Shown here: in pieces, positions 15,702 through 55,727 of the stretch
Numbering within the stretch: position 1 is the stretch's first letter
Layout: each line of letters starts with the position of its first letter
Source of the DNA: Candidatus Dojkabacteria bacterium
GTDB lineage: Bacteria > Patescibacteriota > Dojkabacteria > JAOAGR01
NCBI GenBank assembly: GCA_025999155.1
Contig: AP026679.1
Span: forward strand, 514,135 to 578,134
Direction of reading: 5' to 3'
Length of the DNA stretch: 64,000 nt
Notes under the pieces: model-generated
Database searches by the model: none
Told to the model about the DNA's origin: nothing
The model's input: only the letters and a program-made list of their open reading frames with translations
Program-made: the position numbers and the translations under genes

Positions 15702-17208
15702 ATGTCTAGAAGCATATTTGAGCGTGTCGTATTTAGTTATAAGTTTTATAGATTGTTAGAGGCTTTACCTGGGCTTATATCGTGGACTTGTATTGCTATA
15801 CCTATCGTATTTAGTTTTTTTGCTCCAGATATAGCAGCTTATTTTGTTTTATTTTATGGAGTATATTGGGTTTATAATGCAATTAAATTTGTTGTACTTG
15901 CTTATGTTGCGCATGAAAAGGTTTTATATGTGGTCAAACAAGATTGGCTTGCAAAACTTAAACAAGAGTTTCCAGAACACTGGAACGAGTATTACTACTG
16001 CGCAATTATCCCTTTTGCTTCTGAATCAATAAATATAATTCGCCCAACAATCGAGAGTATTTTAAATAATAATTATCCTAATAATCGTAAGATTATTTGT
16101 TTATCTAGTGAAAAAGCTTTACCAAAAGGGAAAGAAATAGCCTTAGAACTACAGAAGGAATTTCAATCTAGATGTGCTTATTTTTTTGTAACAGAGCATG
16201 AACTTAAACCTGGCGAATTAAAAGGCAAAGCATCTAATCAAAATCATGCCGGACGTTTTGTATATCAAGAATTAACTAGCAGAGGTATTAATCCTGAAAG
16301 AGTTTTATTGACAAGCAACGATGCTGACATGATAAACCATAAGGAGTACATTCCTTATCTTGTTTACAAATTTTTATTAGAAGGGGAAAACAGGCATAAG
16401 AGAATCTATCAGCCAGTACCCACTGACTATAGCGGTGCCGTATGGGATGCTAGATTTTTTTCTCGGATCATTGTGACGCTAGGCGTGCAGTGGAGGCTTG
16501 CTTTATCACAGCGTAATAATTATAGGCTGACGGTATATTCATTCTATTCTATGAGCTTAAAAACCTTGCATGACATTGGTTTTTGGGATGTTGATAATAT
16601 TCCTGAGGATGAGAGAACTATGTTTAAAGCGATTTTCACGTTCGGGAGAGGATTTTCGTGTCAGTTCCATTGTTTATCCCCACTGCCGGTAGGCCTGATG
16701 CAGGCACAAAACATTTGTTGCCGCTGTGAAAGAGCAGTATATACAAATGCGCCGATGGGCTTGGGGAGCTTCGGAGTTTGCCCATTCTTTTATCAAGTCT
16801 GTTGAAAAAAAGGACATTCCTTGGCGAGTAAAAATTTTACCCCTGATTAACCAAGTGAGAACTGCTGTTGATTGGTCATTATCCTCCGTATTGCCGATGT
16901 TTGGTGGTATGATTCCTGGGCTTGTTAATGAGAAGTTTCGTTTGACGGAATTGTCGTATGCTGTACCGTCTGTCATGAGTTTATTATTTAGTATCAGTGC
17001 ATCAATGATTTTGCTTATTATCCTTGTTGATTTGCGGCTAGCTCCAAAGCCACAGAAGCAAGCAATCTTTTTCCGTATTAGTACCTTTGCTCAGTGGATT
17101 TTAGTGCCTTTTGTTGGTTTATTTTTAAGTTCGTTACCCGCTTTAGACGCGCAAACTCGTTTAATATTTAATAAACGTATTGTTTACGTTGAATCAAAGA
17201 AAGAATAG
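15702..17208 (+). pseudogene. Family 2 glycosyltransferase (cellulose-synthase-like, QxxRW type) interrupted by a +1 frameshift near 16700-16712
   Basis: ORF 15702..16805 carries GT2 motifs (IIPFASE, LTSNDAD, PEDERT = TED). The overlapping ORF 16726..17208 in the next frame begins with ..KEQYIQMRRWAWG (QxxRW) plus C-terminal TM helices. The frame switch is at the A4 run in GCACAAAACATTTG. Confidence 0.55.
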
Positions 17209-18389: not shown

Positions 18390-20102
18390 CTATTTTTTAA
18401 GCCCTAGTTTGATAAACATATCTGCCGAATCAGCGACAGGTACACTAGACTGGTTAGTTTCTATTACAATAGGAAATATTGCTGTAAATGTTGATCCTAC
18501 ATTGACTTCTGATTCGATCAGCAATTCACCACCCATTGCCTTTAGCAAGCCTTTTACTACGTATATTCCAAGCCCTGTACCTCCTGCACGTACAATCGTA
18601 TGCGATGAATCTAAATGTTGGTGTACACGATAAAATTTCTTTCCAATGTTTTGTAATTCTTTTTTTGGTATTCCTATTCCAGTATCTTTTACAGAAAAAA
18701 TCACTTTACCGTCTTTTTCATCAAGAGTTACGGTTACTGAACCTTGATGAGTGTATTTGATAGCGTTACTAATCAAGTTATTTACAATTTCTTGTACACG
18801 GTTAGGATCATTGGTTATTACGAATCCTTCTGGTTTGTGATTTTCGAAGGTTAACTTTAATTGTTTAGCTTCAGCATCCTTTTGGTAGGCCTGCAATGAA
18901 AATTCTATGGTATCAACTAAATTGAATTGTGTTGCTTGCAAATTGATTTTAGAATTATCTACGTGTGAAGTTGAAAGCATGGTTTGTATTAAATCTGCTT
19001 CTTTAGTTATTGAAATATGAATTTTTTCAAGTTTTTCCTTCAGATAAGTTAAGTCTAATTCTTGACCACTATTTACTTTAGCTAAAAGTAATTCTGTCAT
19101 ACCACGAGCAACTGTAATAGGTGTACGTAGCTCATGACCCATTATTCCCATCATATCACGTTCTACACGGTATTTCTCTTCAATTATTGCCTTTTGTTTA
19201 CGTATCTTTGCGGTAGCTGACTTGATTTTTGAATTCAAAATCTGATTGAAATTTTTTAAATCTTCATATAAGTCAAGTTTATATAGATATACTGCAAATA
19301 TTTCACTAATTTCCTTGAGAAATCGTATTTCATCGTTAGTAAATACGATATCTTTTTTTTGTACCCCTAGTAAAACATAACCAATTACCTGATTAAGATA
19401 TTTTAATTGTATAAGACAATTGACATCAAAACTGTTTTTAAGTATTTGAAAGAATCTTAGGACCTGAATATTTGTTGTCACCCCATCCATGTATTTCCTA
19501 TATTCTTCATCAAATATGAAAACATTGGAATCTTGGTATTCGAATATTTTTGTAAACGTTTCTTTATGTTTTTTGTATTCAGCATGATGAGTAAGAATGA
19601 TTGTGCAATTTTTGATACCCAACGTTGGTATAACTATGGATTTATACAGATCTATAAGATCAATGACTGAATTTACTCTTAGAACAATATTTTTGAATCT
19701 CTCTAATTGTTTTTTAAAGTTGGGTATCGGTAGAAATCTTTGAAAATATCCATTTTGGAAAGCAAATTTAAAAAATATTAGAAATAAAAATGTCGATATT
19801 GAATAGATGATAATTTCGGTACTTATATATTTATCTTGTGGTAGTCGTCTAATTAAGTAGTTGGTAGTGACTATAAAGGCAACGAAAATTGATGTTAAAA
19901 TCAACTTCTCAATAAATTCTGAAAAAACTATACGAAAATCTGCATAACGGTAATTTACTAGAAGGTACATAAATCCTAACGACATAAAAATTGCAAGCGC
20001 CGGGCCGATCAGTATAAATCTATAATCCTGTAGAGATGGTAATGCCACACTAGAAGTTATCACCTCGCAATTGCAGATATCAATAGACTGAGACGTGAAC
20101 AC
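18390..20102 (-). CDS. Membrane-bound sensor histidine kinase with GAF-like sensor domain (no adjacent response regulator)
   Basis: H-box GHELRTPITVARG, N-box NLISNAIKYT, G1 DTGIGI, G2 GGTGLGI. The N-terminus is multi-TM and a GAF-like segment precedes the DHp domain. Confidence 0.85.
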   Translation of the reverse strand: MFTSQSIDICNCEVITSSVALPSLQDYRFILIGPALAIFMSLGFMYLLVNYRYADFRIVFSEFIEKLILTSIFVAFIVTTNYLIRRLPQDKYISTEIIIYSISTFLFLIFFKFAFQNGYFQRFLPIPNFKKQLERFKNIVLRVNSVIDLIDLYKSIVIPTLGIKNCTIILTHHAEYKKHKETFTKIFEYQDSNVFIFDEEYRKYMDGVTTNIQVLRFFQILKNSFDVNCLIQLKYLNQVIGYVLLGVQKKDIVFTNDEIRFLKEISEIFAVYLYKLDLYEDLKNFNQILNSKIKSATAKIRKQKAIIEEKYRVERDMMGIMGHELRTPITVARGMTELLLAKVNSGQELDLTYLKEKLEKIHISITKEADLIQTMLSTSHVDNSKINLQATQFNLVDTIEFSLQAYQKDAEAKQLKLTFENHKPEGFVITNDPNRVQEIVNNLISNAIKYTHQGSVTVTLDEKDGKVIFSVKDTGIGIPKKELQNIGKKFYRVHQHLDSSHTIVRAGGTGLGIYVVKGLLKAMGGELLIESEVNVGSTFTAIFPIVIETNQSSVPVADSADMFIKLGLKK

Positions 20103-20395
20103 ACCGAGTTGTAATTTCAGAAATCCACTTGTGTCTGTTTATATGATTCATATAGACTGTATGTATACCGTAAGCCAAGCTGACCATCATACAATACGTA
20201 GTATGGGGTTTTGAAAGAATGAGGTCACTATTAGTTTTTATCCTGTTATATTCGTCATATATCACACCCGCATCTAAATAGTTCAGTAAATATGCGCTAG
20301 TATGACAAGTAATACGCTTAATGCAGTACATATACCGAACAAATAGCTTGTTTGTGAGGGACCCTTTGTTTTGCTTTTGGATCGGGAAGGTTTGG

Positions 20396-20650
20396 CTAAA
20401 AAATAGTAGCCCCCCAATAGACATCAATAGTGCCGAGACGTTCGCTATTCTGTTGTACAAAAAAGCCTCGCTCTCGGCTCGTTGTTATTTGAAAAAGGTA
20501 GTTCGATGTTGCCCAGAGTACAACACCTATCAGTATTAAAAAGACCTGTATAGAGTAAGGAGTCGACCTACGCTTTACTAACAAATAAAAACCGCTTATA
20601 CAACCGATAGTTATGACAATAAATAGGAATATAACCGTTAATGTCTCCAC
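20396..20650 (-). CDS. Possible small 2-TM membrane protein (GTG start)
   Basis: An 84-aa ORF with two hydrophobic helices lying between the 380-aa unknown gene and the histidine kinase on the same strand. It starts with GTG and competes with the overlapping ORF 20080..20460. Confidence 0.25.
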   Translation of the reverse strand: METLTVIFLFIVITIGCISGFYLLVKRRSTPYSIQVFLILIGVVLWATSNYLFQITTSRERGFFVQQNSERLGTIDVYWGATIF

Positions 20651-20744
20651 AAGATAAATATATCATTTTTCTTCATTTACTCAAAAAACTTCTATATTAA
20701 AAAAAACTATATTTATATAATTTACAATAGGCTTTAAAAAAGCT

Positions 20745-21887
20745 TTATGTCTCAATAAGTTCGTTCATGTTAGTTAAATTTGAATTAAATGCTATAGCGA
20801 CTGGACTTCCTGTTAATGTCTTGAAATCTTGTAGACCTTTCGCTAGCTTCCGTATTGCGCCCCATCTTACCATTTGTGTAACGGGAATTCGTATGATATT
20901 ACTTAATGCTTGTAGTAATTTCGCCCTAGTATGTACTTTTGTACTTCCTGGTTGTGGTATAGTTTGTATAGTAGTAAACAAATTCGTGCTGAAACTTTTT
21001 AACCACAGATAAAATCCTAAAAATCGGTCATGTAAGATTACAGATTTTAGAAATGTGTTGCGCATACCAGGTGCTAAATCACTCTCGGCTAGACCTCTAG
21101 CCAATTCTCTGTACATTGCCGCCAGTTCCTTATCACCTGAATTGCGAAATATTAGAGAAAGAGTGTGGGCAATACCAGCATTTGAAGCCTCAGCTATCCA
21201 TGCACTATCGCTAACCAATGTACCAGTAGTTTCATCCTTCTTCTCCATGCGTACCCCGCAAGTATTAATCTTGTATCTTTTCACGAGGTGTGGTCCTAAT
21301 ACAGCTTGTAAAGCTTTAACCAAGCTGTAACCTGATACTCCTACAGATTTTGGTACGAATGGGTGTTTTTTACTAGCTTCATGTATAACACCACATCCAA
21401 ATGCAATTAATAGCAAAGCTCGTGCCACTTCTTTAGGAAGGCGAGGATTGCGTCCGCTAAAGGTTAGTACTCTATCAACATATACTCGGTTGTCAGTCTG
21501 TTTCATATATGGCAAAAGAGATGTGTATTCAATCCGACCATTATCTTCGACAACAAATCCTGCTAATATAGATTTGTTTGGATCTTCCGAAATACGCATG
21601 GTAGCAAATGGATACTCACCACCTGTACTGATAACAATATGTCTTGCTGGATCATCAATTCCAGGGATATAATCTGTTTCTGGGAAGACACAGCTGTTTA
21701 TGACTTCTTCATCTACTTTATCTCCTATAGATAGATATGGATTAGATTCTTTCATGGCTTTTGGGTTCACGATCCAATATGTCTTATCACGTCGTCCAAG
21801 CCTCTCGATAGCCTCCATTCTCGCTTCAGCTAAAGTTTTTTGGGCATTTCCATCGGGATTTCCCGAGCCACTACCACCGAAATGCAT
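20745..21887 (-). CDS. Hypothetical protein, no recognisable family; locally elevated GC
   Basis: A clean 380-aa ORF. The opposite strand is broken into ORFs of 90 aa or less. It begins with a Gly/Ser-rich segment (MHFGGSGSGNPDG). I recognise no catalytic or binding motif. Confidence 0.6.
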   Translation of the reverse strand: MHFGGSGSGNPDGNAQKTLAEARMEAIERLGRRDKTYWIVNPKAMKESNPYLSIGDKVDEEVINSCVFPETDYIPGIDDPARHIVISTGGEYPFATMRISEDPNKSILAGFVVEDNGRIEYTSLLPYMKQTDNRVYVDRVLTFSGRNPRLPKEVARALLLIAFGCGVIHEASKKHPFVPKSVGVSGYSLVKALQAVLGPHLVKRYKINTCGVRMEKKDETTGTLVSDSAWIAEASNAGIAHTLSLIFRNSGDKELAAMYRELARGLAESDLAPGMRNTFLKSVILHDRFLGFYLWLKSFSTNLFTTIQTIPQPGSTKVHTRAKLLQALSNIIRIPVTQMVRWGAIRKLAKGLQDFKTLTGSPVAIAFNSNLTNMNELIET

Positions 21888-22094
21888 TGGTGTAAGAGGA
21901 TCTACAGGACAAATATTTATGACTGCTTGATTTGTGTTTTGGTTTTCTTGTTGCTACCATCCTATTGACCAGCTATAGTATACACTATCATTGGCTTTAC
22001 ATTTATATATAATTAATATAGATGCGTGATTTCTGTATTTTCATTTTCACAACGAAAGATTTGCGTGAATTAGATATACTTTCTATTATTTACC

Positions 22095-25000
22095 ATGTTT
22101 GTTCATTTGCGGGTACACTCTGACAACTCTATTCTTAATGGTGTCATGAAGATTGACAAAATTGTGAAGAAAGCAAAAGAATTTGGTATGCCCGCTATTG
22201 CGATAACCGATATTTGTGCCATGTATGGTACGGTGAGTTTCTGGCAAAAATGTAATAACGAAGGTATCAAACCGATATTTGGCGTAGAAGTTAATTTGGC
22301 ACCTCGAACACGACATGATAAAGAAGCAAAGCTTGATGAAAAAACAACATCTCTTGTATTACTAGCAAAAAATCTTACTGGTTATCAGAATCTTATAAAA
22401 ATAGTTTCTATAAGTCATTTAGAAGGCTTTTATTATAAACCACGAATCGATTATGAAGTTTTAGAAAAGTATCATGAGGGACTGATTCTGCTCTCCGGTG
22501 GTATATCCGGTAATATAGCGAAAAATCTTTATTTAGGTAATTCTGAGGAAGCATATGCCATCGCACAAAAATATAAATCAATCTTTGGAGATGATTTTTA
22601 TTTAGAAGTCACTAGATTAGGCACCCATATGGAGGAAGTTATAGAGCCGAAAGTGCTTCAAATGTCAAAAGATCTTGGTATACCTATTGTGGCGACCAAT
22701 GATGTGTATTATGAGAAACAGGAAGACTGTGAAGTCAGGGAAGTACTTTGGTGTATCGATAGCGGTAGACTACTAAGTGATCCATCTCGTAAAAGACCAG
22801 AAACAGACCAACAATATTTTCGTTCTCCTCAAGAAATGATTGAACTTTTTAAAGATTTGCCAGAAGCTATTGAGAATACGTTAAGGATTAACGATGAAAT
22901 AGAAAGTTTTAGTATCAGTTACGGTAAGGTACAGCCAATTTATCCAAAAATTCCAGAAGGTGAGACAGAAGAAACTTATCTCAGAAAGCTTGTTTTTACT
23001 AATGCTAAAAAACGTTTTGGTTATTGGACTGAGAAAGTAGAAAAACAATTAGATTATGAATTAAAAATTATTCATGAAAAAGGTTATGATGGATATTTTC
23101 TTGTGGTATGGGATGCTGCTAATTGGGCGCGTTCCCATGGTATTTCAGTAAGTGCTAGAGGTTCGGCGGCTGGTACAAGTATAGGTTATGCACTAGGTAT
23201 TTCTACCGTCGACCCTCTCAAATGGAATCTTTATTTCGAAAGGTTTTTAAATCCGGAACGAAAATCTCTTCCTGATATTGATTTAGACATTGCAGATAAC
23301 CAAAGAGATGAATTAGTTAATTACATAAAACAAACTTATGGGGAAAATTGTGTTGTGAATGTAGGTGCTTTAGGTAAATTAACCACTCGTGCAGCTATAC
23401 GTGATGTAGGAAGAGTTTTAGGTATTGATCTAAGAACAACAGATCAATTATCTAAACTTGTACCTGTTCAATTTGGTCGTGTTTTGGGTATAAAACCTAT
23501 GTTAAGTGATGAATTAGCTGATAAAGAACTGAAAATTGTTGAAGCGCACAGAGAAAAAGTCGAAGAATTCAGACGAATACTAAAGGAAGATGGTAACGAC
23601 CTTCAGGACATCAAGTACTGCGCACAATGTAAACAAATATTATTCGGTACAGATCTTGAAAAATGTAAAAATTGTGGAAATGCATTGAAAGTAGTGGCTC
23701 AGGCATCTAGCAGATTTACGAAACTTTTATATTACGTGTACAAAATCGAAGGATGTGTTAGGAATGTATCTACTCACGCATGCGGATATTTAATTACGTC
23801 ACCTCAACCTATAGTCGATTATTGCCCTTTACAAAAAGAGTCAGGCAGTCGTGAGAGAATAATTACCCAATTTGAAGGTAAATATTTGGAAGAAATTGGC
23901 CTGATGAAATTCGATTTTCTGGGGGTAGCGAATCTATCGATTATTGATAATACCGTCAACTTAGTAAAGAAATATAAAAATATTGATATCGATATTTATA
24001 ATCTCGATGAAAATGACCAAAAGACCTATGACTTGTTATGCAAAGCGGACACTACCGCAGTATTCCAACTGGAAAGTGCCGGGATGAAGAAATATCTAAG
24101 GGAGCTGCAGCCGCGCAATCTGGAAGAAATCTCTGCTTTATTGGCTTTATATCGTCCTGGTCCTTTGCAGTATATACCAACATATATCAATCGTAAATTT
24201 GGGCGCGAAGAGACTACGTATTTGATTCCAGAGCTTGAAGATATTATGAAGATTACTTATGGTCTGCCTGTATATCAAGAGCAAATACTGCAAATAGCAC
24301 ATCATCTTGCTGGCTATACACTTGGTGAGGCAGATAATTTGCGACGTGCAATGGGTAAAAAATTACCTGCAGTCATGGCTGAAGAAGAGCAGAAGTTCAA
24401 GGCTGGTTTTATGAAAAATTATCCACATTACGGTCAAGAGATTGCCGATAAATTATGGGAGTATGCTTTACCTTTTGCTGATTATGGCTTCAATAAATCT
24501 CATACTGCAGCATACGCCTTAATCTCTTTTCAGACGGCTTACTTAAAAGCTAATTATCCTACGGAGTTTTTTACCGCATTGATGCTGGCCGATATTGAAA
24601 AGCTTGATAAGTTAAAAAGGGATATTGTTGATGCTCAGATGCATGGTATCAAGCTTTTACCTCCAAATATCAATAAATCTGATGCTTTTTTTACAATAGA
24701 AGGAGATGGAATTATACGTTTTGGAATTGGTGGTTTAAAAGGAGTTGGACTCAAAACTATACAACATATTGTTGATGAAAGGGTAAAAAATGGTGAATTT
24801 AAATCTCTTGATGATTTATGTTACCGCATTGATCATAAAGTAGTACCAAAAGGGGCAATAGAGGCGCTGATTAAAATCGGTGCGATGGATGATTTCGGCT
24901 CACGAGCTGGCTTGCTCAAAATTTATAACGATGTATACACAAAAGCACAAAAATCTAAATCTGCTCAATCTACTGGGGCAGTAGATATGTTTAGTTTGGA

Positions 25001-25835
25001 TAATGCTGGTTATACTCTGGCAGCAACAAAAATTCCTGATATACCTGAAGTAGACAATAATCAAAAGAGAGTATGGGAAAAAGACATACTAGGTGTTGCT
25101 TTGACTCCTGATTTACTAGATCAGATAGATTCATACTTACGAGAAAAAGGGTACAAATTGATTCATAACCTGCAAGACATAAACAGTTACAGCACAAAGT
25201 TGGTTAAGCTTTTTGGTTTGGTTACGGCGGTTAATGAAATTACTACAAAGAAAGGTGACTTAATGAGCTTTGTGAAGTTAAAAGATTCTACAGGTGAGAT
25301 ATCGGTGACCGTCTTTCCAAAGGTCTATGAGAAATGCAAAGACTTAAAAGATGGAGTCTACATTCATGTGCAAGGCAAAATACAAAGACGTAAGGAAGAT
25401 CCTGAAATAATTGCAGATGATATAAAAATTTATACTCCTGAGGATCTTCAGAGTATCATAGTAAAGTTAAATAAAAAAATTTCAAATTTGGCACAACAAA
25501 ATCAGCAAGTATACAACACTTCGAATGAAGTAATAACAGAAATTTCACAGTCTCAGAATATTCACATTGGTGCAGAAGAGAAGACAAAAATCCCAAGCAG
25601 CCCAGAGGTAAATTGTATAAGTAGCATAGAAATAAAGCTCAAGAATAATGTAAAACTAGAGTCTTTAGAATCATTTAGTCATTATTTGAGATCTATGGTT
25701 GATGATGACGGTGTAGAAGTATATTTGCACATACCTAGTCACCATACCGTCCGCACAATTAAGCTTGATGGTAAGTATAGTCCTAACGTAAAAGATTATC
25801 AGGGAGATATTATTGAAGATATTGTTGTAAAATAG
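22095..25835 (+). CDS. dnaE: DNA polymerase III alpha subunit
   Basis: 1246 aa. The N-terminal PHP domain reads MFVHLRVHSDNSILNGVMKIDKIVKKAKEFGMPAIAITD. Polymerase-domain motifs include GLMKFDFLGV and PDIDLDI. Confidence 0.9.
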   Translation: MFVHLRVHSDNSILNGVMKIDKIVKKAKEFGMPAIAITDICAMYGTVSFWQKCNNEGIKPIFGVEVNLAPRTRHDKEAKLDEKTTSLVLLAKNLTGYQNLIKIVSISHLEGFYYKPRIDYEVLEKYHEGLILLSGGISGNIAKNLYLGNSEEAYAIAQKYKSIFGDDFYLEVTRLGTHMEEVIEPKVLQMSKDLGIPIVATNDVYYEKQEDCEVREVLWCIDSGRLLSDPSRKRPETDQQYFRSPQEMIELFKDLPEAIENTLRINDEIESFSISYGKVQPIYPKIPEGETEETYLRKLVFTNAKKRFGYWTEKVEKQLDYELKIIHEKGYDGYFLVVWDAANWARSHGISVSARGSAAGTSIGYALGISTVDPLKWNLYFERFLNPERKSLPDIDLDIADNQRDELVNYIKQTYGENCVVNVGALGKLTTRAAIRDVGRVLGIDLRTTDQLSKLVPVQFGRVLGIKPMLSDELADKELKIVEAHREKVEEFRRILKEDGNDLQDIKYCAQCKQILFGTDLEKCKNCGNALKVVAQASSRFTKLLYYVYKIEGCVRNVSTHACGYLITSPQPIVDYCPLQKESGSRERIITQFEGKYLEEIGLMKFDFLGVANLSIIDNTVNLVKKYKNIDIDIYNLDENDQKTYDLLCKADTTAVFQLESAGMKKYLRELQPRNLEEISALLALYRPGPLQYIPTYINRKFGREETTYLIPELEDIMKITYGLPVYQEQILQIAHHLAGYTLGEADNLRRAMGKKLPAVMAEEEQKFKAGFMKNYPHYGQEIADKLWEYALPFADYGFNKSHTAAYALISFQTAYLKANYPTEFFTALMLADIEKLDKLKRDIVDAQMHGIKLLPPNINKSDAFFTIEGDGIIRFGIGGLKGVGLKTIQHIVDERVKNGEFKSLDDLCYRIDHKVVPKGAIEALIKIGAMDDFGSRAGLLKIYNDVYTKAQKSKSAQSTGAVDMFSLDNAGYTLAATKIPDIPEVDNNQKRVWEKDILGVALTPDLLDQIDSYLREKGYKLIHNLQDINSYSTKLVKLFGLVTAVNEITTKKGDLMSFVKLKDSTGEISVTVFPKVYEKCKDLKDGVYIHVQGKIQRRKEDPEIIADDIKIYTPEDLQSIIVKLNKKISNLAQQNQQVYNTSNEVITEISQSQNIHIGAEEKTKIPSSPEVNCISSIEIKLKNNVKLESLESFSHYLRSMVDDDGVEVYLHIPSHHTVRTIKLDGKYSPNVKDYQGDIIEDIVVK

Positions 25836-26034: not shown

Positions 26035-27552
26035 ATGAACATATCAGAATTCCGAAATAAAGTAGAAAGCTCTACCAACGTCCTTTTAGTGCTGCCTTAT
26101 TTGGTAGATCCGGATAGTATTGCAACAGCTTCTTTGTTGTACAGGTTTTTAATCTCTAAGGGGAAAAAAGTAGATATTGCGGCCGAGAAAGTACCTGTAA
26201 CTATATTCAATAACATATTTTCATTGGCTGGTATTGAGGCTACCAAAATATTAAACAAAATTAGTCCTATACGTTATGTGATTAGTGTATCCAATGTAAG
26301 TGATAAAACTAGTATCGACTGGGAGCGAAGAGCTGATCAATTAGATATTAAACTTACTCCAGATGCCGGCATTGTTGATTTTGAAAGTATTACTTATTCG
26401 CGAGAAGGAGGTATTTATGATCTAGTCATTACTATAAATGTGGGTAGGTTATCTGACCTGGGCGAAATTTATACTTCTATACCAAAAAAATTTGAGGAAT
26501 ATGAAATAGTGTCTATTGGAGGAAATTTGAATCTAGAGGGTAGGGCAATAGTGTCCTTATCTCAAGATCTATGGATGTCTACAGAGCTTTTATATAATTA
26601 CGCAAATGATTTGGATCTTGAGATAGATCAAGCTAACGCCTCCATCATATTACACGGGATTATAGGGCAGACGCATGGTCTACAAAAAGTGTATAGTAAT
26701 AACACTTTTGCTATAGTGACAGATATCGCCAATAAATATCAATTAGATTTATCAACAATTATTAAGCAGTATTTTGCATCTGTTGGCATCGATAATGTAA
26801 GGGTGCAGGAGAAGATTCTAAATAATTTGAAATTTGATGAATCACGAAAGACAGTATATTCATATTTGACTAATCGGGATTTAGCTCAGTTAGGTATTTC
26901 TTTTAGTAACTTTGATTATAATTATTACTTACCATTTAGCGTAGATGGTAGAGAATATTATTCATTTATAGTTTTAGAATCAGGACTTTCATCTTTTGTT
27001 TACTTAGTTTCGCCTTTTGAATCCGAAGAATATATTGGGATCGTGAATAGGTCTAATGCTATAAGGAATAAGACTCTTGCATATATTTCTATTGATGCTG
27101 GTGCTATAGATGCTGCTAATCAAGTGCTTGGGGTAATTTCTGGTGGGACAATTTTACAAAGACAACAAGAAGAAAAAAAAGTATTTTCTAATGCATCTTC
27201 AATAACGCAGAACATTGATACTGTATCAGAGGGCTGGGGATATGATGATAATACTAATCAACAACCAATTTCAGCTCCAACAATTCCTTTAAATTCGCCG
27301 AACTCTGCAATATCAAGTAGTTCGGTGGGGGCATATATAATGACGAGTACTAACACTGTTTTTGATCAGGGATCTATTCATTCAACAGAGCATTCTGCTA
27401 ATCAAGGCTCTGCTTATCCTACAGATCCGTCACCCTTCCAGAAAGCAGGAGATTCGCAAATTAATTCTGTTGTATTACATTCATCCAATTTGCATACACA
27501 AACACAACATATGAATCCCTCTGCTCCTCCATTTACGCCAGCTAATACGTGA
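26035..27552 (+). CDS. Hypothetical protein; N-terminal region faintly DHH/NrnA-like but degenerate, C-terminal ~130 aa S/T/N/Q-rich low complexity
   Basis: 505 aa. LVLPYLVDPDSIATASLLY..GKKVDIAAEKVP resembles the NrnA N-terminus (H.NPDGDAIGS) but lacks the DHH motif. The tail reads SAPTIPLNSPNSAISSSSVGA...NSVVLHSSNLHTQTQH. Confidence 0.5.
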   Translation: MNISEFRNKVESSTNVLLVLPYLVDPDSIATASLLYRFLISKGKKVDIAAEKVPVTIFNNIFSLAGIEATKILNKISPIRYVISVSNVSDKTSIDWERRADQLDIKLTPDAGIVDFESITYSREGGIYDLVITINVGRLSDLGEIYTSIPKKFEEYEIVSIGGNLNLEGRAIVSLSQDLWMSTELLYNYANDLDLEIDQANASIILHGIIGQTHGLQKVYSNNTFAIVTDIANKYQLDLSTIIKQYFASVGIDNVRVQEKILNNLKFDESRKTVYSYLTNRDLAQLGISFSNFDYNYYLPFSVDGREYYSFIVLESGLSSFVYLVSPFESEEYIGIVNRSNAIRNKTLAYISIDAGAIDAANQVLGVISGGTILQRQQEEKKVFSNASSITQNIDTVSEGWGYDDNTNQQPISAPTIPLNSPNSAISSSSVGAYIMTSTNTVFDQGSIHSTEHSANQGSAYPTDPSPFQKAGDSQINSVVLHSSNLHTQTQHMNPSAPPFTPANT

Positions 27553-27653: not shown

Positions 27654-28295
27654 TTGTGCTTTGTTAATCACTGCCTAATTATATATTCGTGTCACTCTTT
27701 ACAAACCGTTCAAAAAAGTATATTTTTGACTATATTACAGATGAAGCGTACTGAACAGAAAGACGTGAGGTTGATCTATGATTTGGTTGATGTAGCAATA
27801 TTGCCAGCAGCTTTAATGATTCTTAGTAAGGTCTTATCTATTACGGCCATCAATTATTTTCTTGGTCTTGACTGGAGCGTACGCAGTGTTGCAAACTCTG
27901 TATTCTCGATAGGTCTGGTTTACAATAGTGCTGAAGATGCTGTTTTAGTATCTAGTTATTCTAATCTGTTTATGTTTGTATCGGTTATTGCAGGTTGTAT
28001 GGTTGTAACCGGCAAATCTTTACTTTTAAATCATCGTAGAGCATCTCCTTATTTCGTCTTGAAATTAGCGAAGTATGACTTATTACATCTGTTGAAGTCA
28101 TCATTTCATATATATAAAGAAGCATTTGTCTGGACAACATTCTTAATAATTACTACTGTATATATTTTTGTTTCATTTCTTCTTGGTATGACTTATGGCT
28201 GGGTTGCTACGATGACGCTACTTTTTACTTTGATTTTTATTTGGATTATGGTACAAAATATAGAAGAAGAATTACTTTTTAATAATTACAAATAA
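27654..28295 (+). CDS. Hypothetical polytopic membrane protein
   Basis: About 5 predicted TM helices. The likely true start is the internal Met at 27741 (MKRTEQKD...). No recognised motifs. Confidence 0.5.
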   Translation: MCFVNHCLIIYSCHSLQTVQKSIFLTILQMKRTEQKDVRLIYDLVDVAILPAALMILSKVLSITAINYFLGLDWSVRSVANSVFSIGLVYNSAEDAVLVSSYSNLFMFVSVIAGCMVVTGKSLLLNHRRASPYFVLKLAKYDLLHLLKSSFHIYKEAFVWTTFLIITTVYIFVSFLLGMTYGWVATMTLLFTLIFIWIMVQNIEEELLFNNYK

Positions 28296-28306: not shown

Positions 28307-28945
28307 ATGCAATCGTCCAAATTCATAAAAAAAATAAATCAGATTTTAAATGCTTCTTCAGAGAGCTTTCTGCTTATTGCCTTAATTTCATTATTTGCGT
28401 TCCCTATCGTTATAGCAAAAAGTTTGGAGCCTGTAGTTGCATCCGAAGAGTCTGTAGTTTCGATTCCTACAATTATTCATTATACAGATAAAACGCCTGA
28501 TACAAATGGTCAGTTTGCTTCTACTGCAAACAATGAGTCCCAAAATGTTCTAGGCGCGTTTAATTCTGTTACCATAGATAGGATGTTGACTTTAGATGAA
28601 GAAATTCTGATGTCTTTTGATAGGGTGTATCAAAAGGTTTTACCTGATTTATATGTGCTCTCTGTAGAACAAGCCCCGACATTTAAAAAAGTTAGGCTCT
28701 TTAGTTTAAAGAATGAATTACCAGTAGATAAGAAGTTTTACATAAGCGTAACCGTACCAGATGGTCTAGCAAGTGTAGTGGGTAAGCAAAAGAACGTATA
28801 TATAAACGATAAAAAGTATGTTCTTGGTACTGATGATTTACCAACAGATGGTTTTATTTTAAAGCCGAATGAGGAGATCTCTGTATATATTGAAAGCTCT
28901 CGTACTACTACAACAAAGTTAGTATTTGGAGTAAAAGTAGATTGA
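28307..28945 (+). CDS. Hypothetical secreted/membrane-anchored protein
   Basis: 212 aa. An N-terminal signal-anchor (FLLIALISLFAFPIVIA) is followed by a beta-rich domain. No recognised family. Confidence 0.5.
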   Translation: MQSSKFIKKINQILNASSESFLLIALISLFAFPIVIAKSLEPVVASEESVVSIPTIIHYTDKTPDTNGQFASTANNESQNVLGAFNSVTIDRMLTLDEEILMSFDRVYQKVLPDLYVLSVEQAPTFKKVRLFSLKNELPVDKKFYISVTVPDGLASVVGKQKNVYINDKKYVLGTDDLPTDGFILKPNEEISVYIESSRTTTTKLVFGVKVD

Positions 28946-32074: not shown

Positions 32075-33400
32075 TTAATTGTATTTTTCGGCAGTTGTTG
32101 GAAATGGGTTTACTAGCACCTCCGGCCGATCGGGAAATCGCCCTAGAATTTCTTCTGCTGCTTTGAGTACATATGTTCTTACGCCGTCATCCAATAATAT
32201 TAACTTGGACCCACCATCAGATGATGTACCCTTCAAAACATCTCCGAACACACCCTTAATAAAGAGATATTCAGGACCTATATAAGGTGGATGCCCCACT
32301 ATTAATCCTTCCGATGCATTTCTCTGTATATTATCTAAAAACGACATCAGATTCCAGGTCCATCCCTGAATTCGACCAGTGGTTTCTATATATAGCTTTG
32401 GTCCGCCATTTCGTGTGCTTTTCCTATTCAGATAAACTGTAGACAAACCTATTCCTGCATTATTAGGGCGCAATACAGGTATTCGCCAAAACGCAATAAG
32501 ACCCTGATCCTGATTAAAGGTTTCCCCATCAGGATTAATTTTCTGCAGTTCCATGTGAAAATCTACAGCAGTTTGAACAAACTGATTTCGGTCATCAATA
32601 CTTGCAGCTATACATCTGAATATATTGCTCACATCTATTATAGGATGCTTATACACCCACTCCAGTGCCCTTCCTATATTCGTATGTATACCACGATTTT
32701 CCTTGCTTTCCAACATCGCCCAGACCCAGACGGCAGCGAATGATGAAGCCACATATAAAACAGGTATCGAATGTTCAGGATCCTTCGGTGTCACATGTAC
32801 TCCGAAAGAATCCTCCGAAGGATGATAATACAAAATACTTTTTTGTGGGAAATTTTGATATGTTCCTTGCTCGAGCTGTTGTAGCAGTAGCGCAGATGCT
32901 ACGATCCTCAGACTATCAAATCTTTCCCGATTTTGTTTATCCTGGTATTCTGCAAAAGTTGGACTACCTCGGTACCGAGGTCCTCTTAATGCGTCGACTA
33001 AATTTCTCAATGCAGTAGGAGACATTGTAGCTGTTGATGCCATTGTCCCAGGGCGAATATATGGCAATAACCACTTAGGAACAAGATTCTCTCGGGTAGT
33101 CGCTAAGATATTACTAGAGAACTTTATTACACAAGGTTCATACCCTTTTGCCAACAAACCTTCCATTTTTTGTCTGTAGCATCCTACTGCTTGATCTCCG
33201 CTAAGATTATGGTACGCGCCGTTTACTGGAACCTGTTCGGAAGGCCACATTTCGGATACCCCCACGTACCCTCTATACCGATTTCTACGAAGATCATAAC
33301 CCTTGTATGCCGAACCACCAATATTGTAATATTGCGTTTCTAGGATACCTTCTAGGAATTGTTCTGCGTTGATCCCCAAATAATTATAGATCGATTTCAT
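32075..33400 (-). CDS. Hypothetical protein, no recognisable family; locally elevated GC
   Basis: A 441-aa ORF with only short ORFs on the opposite strand. Its composition (about 43% GC) differs from the flanks (33-37%). No motifs recognised. Confidence 0.6.
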   Translation of the reverse strand: MKSIYNYLGINAEQFLEGILETQYYNIGGSAYKGYDLRRNRYRGYVGVSEMWPSEQVPVNGAYHNLSGDQAVGCYRQKMEGLLAKGYEPCVIKFSSNILATTRENLVPKWLLPYIRPGTMASTATMSPTALRNLVDALRGPRYRGSPTFAEYQDKQNRERFDSLRIVASALLLQQLEQGTYQNFPQKSILYYHPSEDSFGVHVTPKDPEHSIPVLYVASSFAAVWVWAMLESKENRGIHTNIGRALEWVYKHPIIDVSNIFRCIAASIDDRNQFVQTAVDFHMELQKINPDGETFNQDQGLIAFWRIPVLRPNNAGIGLSTVYLNRKSTRNGGPKLYIETTGRIQGWTWNLMSFLDNIQRNASEGLIVGHPPYIGPEYLFIKGVFGDVLKGTSSDGGSKLILLDDGVRTYVLKAAEEILGRFPDRPEVLVNPFPTTAEKYN

Positions 33401-46181: not shown

Positions 46182-46258
46182 TGGAGCGAGCGATCGGATT
46201 CGAACCGACGGCCTTCTCCTTGGCAAGGAGACGTTCTAGCCAACTGAACTACGCTCGC
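46182..46258 (-). tRNA. tRNA-Gly (anticodon GCC), CCA encoded
   Basis: Reverse complement GCGAGCG-TA-GTTC-AGTTGGCTA-GAAC-G-TCTCC-TTGCCAA-GGAGA-AGGCC-GTCGG-TTCGAAT-CCGAT-CGCTCGC-T-CCA. The cloverleaf is good, with anticodon GCC. Confidence 0.85.
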
Positions 46259-51004: not shown

Positions 51005-52366
51005 TTATACTGTTTTGTGCTTACTTATTCTTTGTCCTGCAATTCGATCTAGATCACTTGGGAATAAAACAGCTTCTCTGATGTTTTTAAGCCGAAATAT
51101 TTGTTGTGTCATTCGCTCTAAACCAAATGAAAACCCTGCTTCATAAGGTATACCGTACTTAAATGCTTCTAAATAGTGTTCATAATACTCAAGAGTTAAC
51201 CCTTGATTCTTCATATTTTCCACTAATTTATTGTAATCATGAATACGATGAGTACCAGATAACCATTCAAGACCTCTGCATACTAGATCGAAGCTGAGAG
51301 ATTCATCTGGATCCTCCGGGTTATTACGAGTGTAAAAATTTTTGTCTTTCTTAAAATTTAATATCCATAAAAAATCAGATCCATATTCCTCTAAAGCCCA
51401 CTCAGCAATCAACCTTTCATCTTGCGGGTCAAGATCTAACTCTGGCCTTTGAGCTGATTTTCCGGCCTTTTTTTCAATTATTTGTAACGCCTCTTTGACT
51501 TTGACTTTCGGGAATCTAGATGCTGGAAGTTGAGGCAAAGTAGTGTTCCACAATTGTAATTCCTTGCTATAGTTATTATCTAAGTGATTAAAAATTTTTC
51601 TGACTACACGTTCGATAATTTCTAGACATTCATCATAGTCTTCTATAAAACCTACTTCTCCGTCCATCTGCGTAATTTCCATCAAATGACGAGTAGTGTT
51701 ATGTTTTTCAGCTCGAAAAACTGGCGTTATGGTGAAAACCCTTTCGAAAACTCCCACCATTATTTGCTTATATACTTGCGGACTTTGAGCTAGATATGCT
51801 TTATGATCATAATACTTGACTTCAAAGACCGAAGCTCCACTTTCAGATGGGGCTCCCATAAGTACAGGTGATCTAAATTCTATGAAGCCTTCTTCAATCA
51901 TTGCATTTCTGAAAGCTGTCAGTATTCCAGCTTGTACCTTAAATATAGCCTTTTGTTTTTCATGCCGTAATGTTACTGGGCGGTGATCTATAATAGTATC
52001 TAAATGAGCGTCAAGAGAATCTTTATTTATTTCTACAGGCACTTGATCAAGGACAGGGGATATCACCTCAATCTCTGAAACATGAACTTCTAAACCCTCT
52101 TTATCAGGCTTTTTTATTACATACCCGCGGATGCTAAGAACAGACTCGACTTGTAAATGCTTGATAGAGTCTATTTGCTGTGCATTTAGTACACATTGTA
52201 CAAATCCAGTACTATCACGCAATAGCAAAAATCCTAATTTACCTAGGATACGAAGCCTATGCATCCACCCAGCAACTAGTACATATTGATCGATATGTTT
52301 ATTTAAGTCCTTAATTAGAGTTCTTTCACGCATAGTATATACATCCCACAATTGTACAATGAACAT
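51005..52366 (-). CDS. aspS: Aspartate--tRNA ligase, compact archaeal/eukaryal-type (possibly non-discriminating)
   Basis: 453 aa with an N-terminal OB domain. Motif 2 reads FRAEKHNTTRHLMEITQMDGE. Motif 3 reads LSGTHRIHDYN...FGLERM. GS.RIH is the AspRS signature rather than the AsnRS one. An alternative start lies at the Met at 52331-52333. Confidence 0.75.
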   Translation of the reverse strand: MFIVQLWDVYTMRERTLIKDLNKHIDQYVLVAGWMHRLRILGKLGFLLLRDSTGFVQCVLNAQQIDSIKHLQVESVLSIRGYVIKKPDKEGLEVHVSEIEVISPVLDQVPVEINKDSLDAHLDTIIDHRPVTLRHEKQKAIFKVQAGILTAFRNAMIEEGFIEFRSPVLMGAPSESGASVFEVKYYDHKAYLAQSPQVYKQIMVGVFERVFTITPVFRAEKHNTTRHLMEITQMDGEVGFIEDYDECLEIIERVVRKIFNHLDNNYSKELQLWNTTLPQLPASRFPKVKVKEALQIIEKKAGKSAQRPELDLDPQDERLIAEWALEEYGSDFLWILNFKKDKNFYTRNNPEDPDESLSFDLVCRGLEWLSGTHRIHDYNKLVENMKNQGLTLEYYEHYLEAFKYGIPYEAGFSFGLERMTQQIFRLKNIREAVLFPSDLDRIAGQRISKHKTV

Positions 52367-52826: not shown

Positions 52827-53115
52827 GTTCTTTGTTTAAGTTAATTAAAAATCCTGCATAGTCTAACATACTAATGGTTATTTGCAATATATTTGTGTAA
52901 AAGATGTATAAATAATTCTGTATTTATTTGTTCTAAAGCATCTTGTAGTTATTTTAGATTACTTAATAGGTGATCAATACAATTGTCATTGAATTTTGAG
53001 GTAGATATGATCCAACCGGTAGGCATGAATGTAGAATAAAGTTTATGCAACAACGAAAACCTACAAATATATTTGATTTAATGTCATGATATTTTGTTTC
53101 TTTTACGTCCTTTCA

Positions 53116-53288
53116 ATCTCTGAAACTTGGACCTCTAAACCGTGTTTATTAGGACTTTTATTACACACCCACGGATGCTAAGAACAGACTCGACTTGCAA
53201 ATGCTTGATAGAGTCTATTTGTTGTGCATTAGTACACATTGTACAAATCCAGTACTATCACGCAATAGCAAAAAGCCTAGGCATCGAC
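53116..53288 (-). pseudogene. Truncated duplicate of the aspS 5' region (about 90% identical to 52071-52268)
   Basis: Direct alignment by eye: atctctgaaacttggacctctaaacc...ggatgctaagaacagactcgacttgcaaatgcttgatagagtctatttgttgtgcatt agtacacattgtacaaatccagtactatcacgcaatagcaaaaagcctag versus the aspS copy. No intact ORF. Confidence 0.6.
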
Positions 53289-54080: not shown

Positions 54081-55727
54081 ATGAAGCAAACAAAATTTAC
54101 AAATACCTTCAAGTTAATGTCTTTATATTCTGTGTTTCTTGCGTCCTTTGTGATGCTTATATATTTCGTTGCTGCTCGGTTTGTAACAAACGCATCGTCT
54201 AGCAATTACTCTATAAGATTTAATGGTACTGCTTCTTCATATGTCAGTATACCTTTAGATAACGCTCCGTCTTTAAATGTGGGTGCTGGCGATTTTACTA
54301 TAGAGTGGTGGATGCAACCTGTATCAGTGTCTACTAGTACATCATGTAGTAGTGTAGCAGATGCTTTTACTCAGGGGCATCTTATATTTGATAGGGATAT
54401 CTTTGGACCTGGAGACTACGGTGATTTTGGAATTTCTTTGATGGCAGACCGTCGGTTAGCTTTTAGCGCACATAATGGCACTAGTGGGATTACAGCATGT
54501 TCATCAGTATTGAATCTTAATCAGTGGTATTACATAGCAGCAGTGCGTTCGGGAAATCAGATCCGCATCTATGTAAATGGTACATTAGATGACACTCGTA
54601 CTATATCAGGAGATTTAAGTTACAGGACTGGTAGATCTACTAGCTACTCGGCTGATCCTTTGATAGTCTTAGGGGCAGAGAAGCACACGGCTGTAGGAGG
54701 AGAAACATTCACCGCATACCACTATAACGGTTATTTAGATGAGTTACGCCTATCAAATATAGCTCGTACAATATCTGGGTCTCCCACAACTCCTTTCGTT
54801 GTGGATGGTAATACTGTAGCTCTTTTCCGATTTGAAAATAATGTAAATAGTGAACTTGGCTCAATTCCTGGTTTGACTTCGTCATCCGTGACATATTCTA
54901 CCGATGTGCCACCTTTTGATACAACTCCAACCCCAAGTGATACTCCGACTCCAAGCGATACGCCAACTCCAAGTGATACGCCAACCCCAAGCGATACGCC
55001 AACCCCAAGCGATACGCCAACTCCAAGTGATACGCCAACCCCAAGCGATACGCCAACTCCAAGTGATACGCCAACCCCAAGTGATACCCCAACTCCAAGT
55101 GGCACTCCAACCCCAAGTGATACCCCAACTCCAAGTGGTACTCCAACCCCAAGTGATACCCCAACTCCAAGTGGCACTCCAACCCCAAGTGATACCCCAA
55201 CTCCAAGTGGCACTCCAACCCCAAGTGATACCCCAACTCCAAGTGGCACTCCAACCCCAAGTGATACCCCAACTCCAAGTGGTACACCAACTCCAACCCG
55301 CACTCCGACTCACACAAACACACCGATAGCTACAATACCTGCCACCTCACCTACACAGGCCCCGACATATGTATGGAGACAGGATGATACTCCGATTTAT
55401 TATTCCGATAACAATTCTAGTGTAATTTATTATTCCGATAACAATTCTAGTGTAACGTCTACTGTCTCTCCGACACATTCTTCTCAAACTCAAACCCCTA
55501 CTGTTCCATCAGATCCTAATAGAGAAGATAAGTTAAGCGTTAGAGATGGTAGAGATGGTGAGGAACCTAATGACGTAGCTTCGCAATCTAACGGAAGCCA
55601 GGAAAACACAGAAAATAACGGTACGATTTCATGGCTTAATCCGACGTTTCTCACTATTGCTTGTGTGGTCGGTCTCTTGATCTTGCTGATAATTTTTATC
55701 ATATACTACAGGAGATCAAGAGATTAG
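54081..55727 (+). CDS. Cell-surface protein: N-terminal signal/TM, LamG (concanavalin A-like lectin, Laminin_G_3) domain, (TPTPSD/G)n linker, C-terminal TM anchor
   Basis: The LamG_3 signature reads [57 protein letters not shown]. There are 21 tandem TPTPS[DG] hexapeptides. The C-terminus is [26 protein letters not shown]. Confidence 0.7.
54922..55300. repeat. Coding tandem repeat, 18-bp unit x ~21 (ACNCCAACYCCAAGYGRY encoding TPTPSD / TPTPSG), with a 36-bp higher-order unit in the distal half
   Basis: The proximal copies are acgccaac(c/t)ccaag(c/t)gat (TPTPSD). The distal copies alternate accccaactccaagtggcact / ccaaccccaagtgat ([12 protein letters not shown]). Confidence 0.9.
55396..55455. 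repeat. Perfect 30-bp tandem duplication (tttattattccgataacaattctagtgtaa x2) inside the same gene, encoding [10 protein letters not shown] twice
   Basis: Two identical adjacent 30-mers on the plus strand. Confidence 0.85.

Follow-up and report, generated by a model that had tools for sequence, protein, structure and literature searches.

Gene X is an open reading frame (ORF) of 380 aa with an ATG start, located at positions 20745-21887 on the minus strand of the window, by which we mean the whole 64,000-nt stretch of Candidatus Dojkabacteria DNA analysed here (contig AP026679.1, positions 514,135 to 578,134). In the NCBI annotation of this metagenome-assembled genome (MAG), its product is the hypothetical protein KatS3mg084_0494. 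X is a genuine, native protein-coding gene that holds a fixed position in one narrow Dojkabacteria clade, and its protein sequence changes at several times the rate of any of its neighbours. Our full descriptive account, to which we assign a probability of about 0.6, is that it encodes a native, lineage-restricted, fast-evolving orphan protein. This makes X an example of a familiar kind, the taxonomically restricted, fast-evolving orphan of the candidate phyla radiation (CPR), rather than a new system, and the finding carries modest weight. What was measured for X, a divergence peak with two allele types in recombining flanks and an uneven constraint along the protein, is mildly unusual in so small a genome. 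At approximately 0.74 Mb, nearly every gene is expected to matter, yet X outpaces its neighbours several-fold.

The protein encoded by X, as read in the window, begins MHFGGSGSGNPDG. At the base composition of the gene, the chance of a 381-codon stop-free run is approximately 1.5e-12 per start, and the longest stop-free run found in 30 shuffles of the window was 153 codons. Because its length is far beyond that expected by chance or seen in the shuffles, X is not a chance ORF, and the clean frame of 380 aa described in an earlier reading made from the letters alone (the sequence-only reading) is uninterrupted throughout 20745-21887. With dnaE as the synteny anchor, the same gene order is observed in all loci that carry a relative of X: dnaE is divergent from X, and downstream of X lie a co-oriented seven-transmembrane (7TM) histidine kinase gene, a convergent murG, and then a GT2 glycosyltransferase gene, khpB/jag, yidC and trmD.

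Few relatives were found. Among 5.8 billion proteins, a word-indexed search retrieved three, namely the window's own (from a 738-kb contig) and two relatives (78% and 62% identity). An exhaustive profile search with HMMER against all 1.84 billion cluster representatives added two short proteins that are the two halves of a single gene at locus L004, and locus L011 was added when metagenome contigs were scanned for the pattern of the conserved core of X. A profile word search gave nothing further, an earlier metagenome scan with a three-sequence alignment of X gave no match, and a genome-contig scan anchored on DnaE gave only an unrelated Clostridia locus. Relatives of X are present at four other loci only (L001, L003, L004 and L011). 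All four are from Dojkabacteria, and their DnaE proteins are 88-96% identical to that of the window where this was measured, which is at every locus except L011, a 4.9-kb contig that begins inside X and shows X, the kinase gene and murG only. Phage genomes and viral contigs yielded no relative of X (one viral scan used the three-sequence alignment), and no paralogue was found in the window or in the relatives' loci obtained.

Comparison of X and all of its relatives with Pfam, NCBIfam, PHROGs and PADLOC gave chance-level matches only (Cas1 MYXAN at 11 bits, CHIPS and PDC-M14B); the PADLOC-DB defence models reached E-values of 0.02-0.03 at 11-12 bits. Searches of PDB sequences with a single sequence and with a profile gave nothing below E = 0.5, and neither a tRNA nor any RNA family overlaps X. 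The protein is in no described family and is already deposited publicly as a hypothetical protein. The sequence-only reading had seen no recognisable signature in X and had named a lineage-specific novel protein as one possible explanation. Both statements hold: no domain is recognised by Pfam, NCBIfam, PHROGs or PADLOC or among PDB sequences, no fold is matched, and even the exhaustive profile search gave no match beyond four closely related Dojkabacteria loci.

Rate of evolution and allele types

Where the DnaE proteins of the relatives are 93, 96 and 88% identical to that of the window, the X proteins are 80, 63 and 40% identical, respectively. The ratio of nonsynonymous to synonymous substitution (dN/dS) is 0.5-0.8 for X, compared to 0.09-0.28 for dnaE, murG, yidC and an unnamed gene of 505 aa. 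The corresponding pN/pS ratio differs between two parts of the protein. In the variable N-terminal part (residues 1-150; 21438-21887, minus strand), which has a Gly/Ser-rich start and is predicted to be of mixed helix and strand, pN/pS is 0.86-1.47 for the three closest alleles and is not different from 1; the frame is nevertheless open. In contrast, residues 151-380 show a pN/pS of 0.41-0.49, which is significantly below 1 (p from 9e-3 to 4e-8). Had all sites evolved at the synonymous rate, comparison with L001, L003 and L004 should show 7, 20 and 49 stop-creating substitutions, respectively, whereas one at most was observed. This deficit indicates that X, its N-terminal part included, has been kept open by selection. 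To judge from this open and partly constrained frame, X looks like an expressed gene.

Of the 380 positions of X, 114 are invariant among the four full alignable sequences, and these are concentrated in a conserved core at approximately residues 178-345 (20853-21356, minus strand). The invariant motifs of this core are VPxSxxVxG, VLGPH, INTCxVxM, ExSNAGIAxTL, YRxxAxxLA, DRFxGxYLW, LFTTIQxIPxP and IPxTQM. The maximum hydropathy over 19 residues is 1.53, so that no membrane-helix segment is present; no signal peptide was found in X, and the isoelectric point (pI) is 9.3. By these predicted properties, X is a soluble, basic protein.

The rapid change is confined to the gene. In 300-nt sliding windows comparing the window with L004 and L011, X shows 52-68% nucleotide identity against 79-100% in the flanks, and the drop is bounded by the ORF. 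In the same comparison the kinase sensor region is approximately 80% identical and dnaE 79-94%, while identity is 99-100% from 19781 to 17684, a segment that takes in the kinase core and part of murG, and approximately 80-88% on both sides of it. By these alignments, related strains have recombined to make the X locus a mosaic, in which X is the sharp divergence peak. Within this mosaic, dnaE of the window is nearest to that of L003 and yidC is nearest to that of L001. The alleles of X are of two deeply divergent types, A (window, L001 and L003) and B (L004 and L011). The divergent intergenic region between X and dnaE (21961-22094) is 70-92% identical among relatives at the nucleotide level, and that between X and the kinase gene (20651-20744, minus strand; 94 nt, or 77-97 nt in relatives) is 77% identical between the window and L004, compared to 56-66% for the two halves of X. 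For both of these regions, the identity of the whole spacer is higher than that of either half of X.

The annotated start of gene X is probably not the ancestral one, judging from its relatives, which start 24-32 residues further upstream (MVTTSKPNKAVINICPVDPLAP-M...). In the window, the in-frame sequence just before Met1 of X reads ...AVINICPVDPLTP. A remnant of the ancestral 24-residue N-terminal extension lies at 21888-21960 (minus strand), where an ATG at 21960 reads MVATRKPKHK..., and a 1-nt frame break (one extra base in an A-rich run at approximately 21925-21930) splits the frame of this ATG from the X ORF. The 380-aa form would be either a truncated allele that re-starts at a Met conserved in type-A alleles or the product of an assembly indel. 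A different lesion is found in the L004 allele, in which a TGG codon has become a TGA nonsense codon after approximately 145 residues, followed by an expanded (HYK)n repeat. The position of this stop coincides with the boundary between the variable N-terminal part and the rest of X. The L011 allele, which is 96-99% identical to that of L004, has TGG (Trp) at this codon and an intact frame, indicating that the L004 stop is recent. The linker past the nonsense codon (L004 5759-5849) carries an expanded 9-nt repeat encoding (H/K)YK units, of which L011 has fewer copies.

Base composition and the question of horizontal transfer

The overall GC content of X is 39.7%, compared to 34.3 +/- 2.8% for the other 42 long ORFs of the window (z = 1.9, rank 3/43). 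The excess is found at codon position 1 (GC1: 49.5% against 44.5%) and codon position 2 (GC2: 42.1% against 32.4%, z = 2.0), whereas GC content at codon position 3 (GC3) is 27.6% against 26.1 +/- 3.3% (z = 0.47, rank 10/43). GC3 is 25.8-27.6% across all four orthologues of X, and synonymous codon choice is ordinary (leave-one-out log-likelihood z = -0.6, rank 11/43). At the protein level, Ala, Gly, Pro, Arg and Thr are enriched and Ile, Asn, Lys, Tyr and Gln are depleted. With GC3 normal and only the first two codon positions raised, the excess is an amino-acid effect: the high GC content of X is a by-product of the composition of its protein and not a sign of recent foreign DNA. The sequence-only reading was right that X is richer in GC than its neighbours, but the rise that it described at third codon positions is absent from the gene as a whole, and the stretch that it quoted, ggctcgggaaatcccgatgg, is a local exception to the normal GC3.

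That reading had also regarded horizontal acquisition as compatible with the composition of X, and this part of it is not supported. Acquisition from a GC-richer donor would account for the overall GC, GC1 and GC2 values, which are high for the genome, and for the fact that other Dojkabacteria lineages have no relatives of X at the same position. However, neither GC3 in any orthologue nor synonymous codon use bears the mark of a donor, and there is no amelioration from GC to AT: when substitutions in X were polarised with an outgroup, the GC-to-AT and AT-to-GC counts were 23:41, 21:47, 33:32 and 104:104 (ratios 0.45-1.0), which is like or below the ratios for dnaE, the kinase gene and murG. 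Moreover, X sits between housekeeping genes at the same place in every relative, its borders lack a tRNA, integrase or repeat (tRNAs come no nearer than 492-566 and 46182-46258), and no candidate donor or other relative was found in 15 billion proteins, nor any relative on a phage genome or viral contig. Normal GC3, the lack of amelioration, the fixed position and the lack of mobility marks together leave recent transfer unsupported, and we consider acquisition from a GC-richer donor very improbable. An older transfer, into the ancestor of the small clade that carries X, is conceivable but likewise very unlikely. The case of X illustrates that amino-acid composition by itself can produce a GC anomaly that catches the eye, and it corrects the call of transfer.

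Derived substitutions in the lineages of the window and L001 (15702-25835) favour the change from AT to GC in every gene tested (18:71 for murG with the GT2 gene and 10:37 for the kinase gene, for instance), while those in the L003 and L004 lineages are balanced or AT-biased. This suggests a lineage-wide upward drift of GC content in the window and L001.

The dnaE-kinase slot and the function of X

The position between dnaE and the 7TM kinase gene (the slot) was also compared in more distant Dojkabacteria, anchored on DnaE homologues of 57-69% identity (L006-L010). In each of these loci the slot genes are co-oriented with the kinase gene, but their content differs: a 344-aa protein with no domain in L009, a 278-aa protein and a ThiF-family enzyme in L006 (4954-6777), a ThiF-family (E1-like) enzyme and a 258-aa protein in L008 (4999-6761), proteins of 532 aa and 186 aa with no domain in L007, and TrmB, a patatin and a glycosyltransferase in L010. 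The slot thus appears to be a variable spot in Dojkabacteria that holds mostly unrecognisable genes differing by lineage. The 258-aa protein of L008 weakly matches TIGR03694 (exosortase-system-associated acyltransferase, LuxI/FeeM-type; E-value: 2e-5, 24 bits, under the curated cut-off), and the ThiF enzyme and the protein of 258-278 aa may act as a pair in small-molecule or peptide modification, with a link to the kinase.

No similarity was found between X and the slot proteins of L006, L007, L008 and L010 using BLASTP, hmmsearch, hhalign and shuffled Smith-Waterman alignment. The 344-aa protein of L009 was the top hmmsearch match among eight positional candidates (E-value: 0.09, in two collinear stretches), it aligns with the L004 allele at a Smith-Waterman z of 3.65 (1/300 shuffles), and it shares with X the collinear motifs TEAR, FWI[VL], GT[IM]RI, GF[IV]V, [ED]R, RAxL and ILxP. 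These borderline similarities make it a possible remote positional orthologue of X. Given that X is at 40% identity when DnaE is at 88%, almost no recognisable similarity is expected in an orthologue at 69% DnaE identity. The orphan status of X is therefore explained as well by runaway divergence of a resident gene as by gene birth or replacement.

Structure prediction with AlphaFold2 gave X a mean predicted local distance difference test (pLDDT) value of 34.7 with three sequences and 40.6 with five. Only residues 180-270 reach 57-66, and residues 152-235 are at 45-66. Residues 180-270, together with a helix of lower confidence at 152-174, are predicted to form a helix, a strand, a helix, a long hairpin and two helices. 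The core is predicted, with low confidence, to be mostly helical. Foldseek comparison of the models with PDB and BFVD, a check suggested by the sequence-only reading, gave no match at E < 0.03, and we attach no weight to these comparisons. Mom and DfoC, which have the GNAT fold, were among the non-significant matches, which we note as no more than a lead.

With respect to function, our tentative proposal, for which we claim clearly less than even odds, is that X serves the adjacent 7TM sensor kinase as a cytoplasmic accessory, either by making or modifying a signal or by modulating the kinase itself; the N-terminal part of X would be a rapidly changing specificity element. This proposal derives from the finding that the slot genes always run in the direction of the kinase gene, and from the acyltransferase-like and ThiF-like pair found in some lineages. 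Several observations weigh against it. The link between X and the kinase consists of adjacency and orientation only. A conserved promoter-like site (TTGAGT-16-TATATT, 20684-20657) is located in the spacer just before the GTG start of the kinase gene, so that co-transcription with X is not needed; no intrinsic terminator was found in this spacer, which gives no terminator evidence either way. The kinase sensor, at approximately 80% nucleotide identity, is no more diverged than the background and does not co-diverge with X. No sequence or profile link connects X to the slot genes of L006, L007 and L008, and no homology, domain or confident fold backs any function. Finally, lesions in two of the five X alleles (the N-terminal frame break of the window and the nonsense codon of L004), together with the high average dN/dS, fit a dispensable gene.

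Alternatively, X would be a conflict or host-interaction protein (for defence, counter-defence or symbiosis) under diversifying selection, with the N-terminal part serving in recognition, the core as effector and the adjacency of the kinase being incidental. We regard this as possible but doubtful. X is a bounded divergence peak with two deep allele types in flanks that are partly 99-100% identical, the dN/dS of its N-terminal part is near or above 1 in an open frame, and the gene content of the slot differs per lineage, all of which speak for this explanation. However, dN/dS is nowhere significantly above 1, PADLOC and PHROGs gave no match, phages and viral contigs hold no relative, no partner gene of the toxin/immunity or defence-operon type is present, and a role at the cell surface is difficult to reconcile with a protein that has neither signal peptide nor membrane segment. 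The same near-neutral N-terminal part and average dN/dS of 0.5-0.8 could instead mark a dispensable relic under relaxed selection that is heading for loss, as could the frame break in the window, the nonsense codon and repeat expansion in L004, and the frameshifts of the adjacent kinase gene in the window, L004, L011 and L009. This explanation, which we find rather unlikely, has to contend with significant purifying selection on residues 151-380 (pN/pS 0.41-0.49, p down to 4e-8), with a frame that stayed open although neutrality predicts 7-49 stop-creating changes, and with the intact type-B allele of L011, which makes the L004 stop recent. In addition, as the window also has frameshifts in its kinase and glycosyltransferase genes, some of its lesions are possibly assembly errors. 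If diversifying selection is at work, whether linked to the kinase or facing a host or phage, X would be a rare handle on strain-level interaction biology in Dojkabacteria; if the gene is decaying, X would document ongoing gene loss in a reduced genome.

It is less probable again that X is an extremely diverged acyltransferase of the GNAT/LuxI/FeeM kind, orthologous to the slot gene of L008 (and possibly of L006) and making an acylated signal for the 7TM kinase. The weak TIGR03694 match of the L008 protein points in this direction, as do the helix-strand-helix-hairpin predicted for residues 152-235 (pLDDT 45-66), which resembles the second half of the GNAT fold, and the appearance of Mom and DfoC below significance. 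Nevertheless, no Pfam or NCBIfam acyltransferase profile matched any of the five X family sequences, even at E = 10. The farthest-reaching version of the kinase-accessory proposal is that X and the other unrecognisable slot genes are one runaway-diverging family that makes or modifies the kinase signal, forming a CPR-specific cell-cell or symbiont-host module with strain-specific alleles and an undescribed fold; we would be surprised if this were the case.

Neighbouring features and comparison with known systems

The divergent housekeeping neighbour of X is dnaE (DNA polymerase III alpha; 22095-25835, plus strand). Downstream of X and co-oriented with it, the sensor histidine kinase gene (HisKA_7TM, HisKA and HATPase_c; 18390-20650, minus strand) encodes 746 aa in relatives. 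It is intact (720-755 aa) in L001/L002, L003, L006, L007, L008 and L010 and is frameshifted at differing positions in the window (at least two frameshifts, in the 7TM N-terminal region), L004 (approximately residue 205), L011 (approximately residue 425) and L009 (approximately residue 150). The broken genes are located at 18390-20650 (minus strand) in the window, 6754-8986 in L004, 1378-3611 in L011 and 3247-5441 in L009. L004 and L011 are 99-100% identical over the kinase gene, yet their frameshifts are at differing positions. These frameshifts could be due to independent inactivation, slippage-prone runs or assembly errors. The GT2-like glycosyltransferase gene (15702-17208, plus strand; 499-503 aa in relatives) is split into ORFs at 15702-16805 and 16726-17208, with a frame change near 16650. 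The frameshifts of the window in the kinase and GT2 genes are both relative to near-identical relatives.

Past dnaE, three co-oriented genes on the plus strand (26035-27552, 27654-28295 and 28307-28945) encode proteins of 505, 213 and 212 aa without a Pfam domain. This conserved cluster is syntenic in L001, L003 and L009, and the dN/dS of the 505-aa gene is approximately 0.25-0.28. A second GC-rich ORF is located at 32075-33400 (minus strand; 441 aa, GC 41.6%, GC3 33.8%); it has no Pfam domain and is dissimilar to X. The highest GC content of the window (43.7%, with a GC2 of 57.7%) is that of the gene at 54081-55727 (plus strand), which encodes a 548-aa protein with a Laminin_G_3/concanavalin-like domain. 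In this gene an 18-nt (6-aa) unit is repeated in tandem approximately 20 times or more at 54852-55373, and its product is probably a repetitive surface protein. Elsewhere in the window, a segment of approximately 170 nt is duplicated at 52068-52236 and 53113-53279 (spacing 1044 nt, 83-98% identity), partly within the ORF at 51005-52366.

Several known systems were compared with X. The signature of L,D-transpeptidases (YkuD) is H...G-C-[IV]-R-M, and H200...C210-G-V-R-M of X resembles this form. A YkuD-like enzyme was rejected because X has no match to the YkuD Pfam family, the motif residues are spaced differently, and the L004 and L011 alleles have Glu in place of the Arg. A target of a diversity-generating retroelement was likewise rejected, as no direct repeat of at least 40 nt involves X in the 64-kb window and no reverse transcriptase is found among the syntenic neighbours.

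The comQXP locus of Bacillus and the agrBDCA locus of Staphylococcus are polymorphic quorum-sensing loci. Like them, the X locus has a hypervariable gene directly upstream of a co-oriented multi-pass sensor histidine kinase gene, conserved flanks, and recombination breakpoints within the locus. Unlike them, X is dissimilar to ComQ and AgrB, no ORF for a small precursor peptide is found in the 94-nt spacer between X and the kinase gene, and the kinase sensor does not co-diverge; on the basis of the latter two differences, a pherotype locus of the comQXP or agr kind was rejected. LuxI/FeeM-like GNAT acyltransferases resemble the X system in that a weakly member-like protein occupies the L008 slot and X has a compatible predicted segment, but X matches neither these families nor the L008 protein by sequence or profile, and it has no significant fold match. 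A further comparison is with the orphan hypothetical proteins of CPR bacteria. As with these, X has no detectable homologue outside a narrow clade, no domain and no annotation, and it lies amid housekeeping genes in a genome of approximately 0.74 Mb. X is distinct among them in the properties measured for it here: a fixed position, fast divergence, two allele types, and a near-neutral N-terminal part set against a constrained core.

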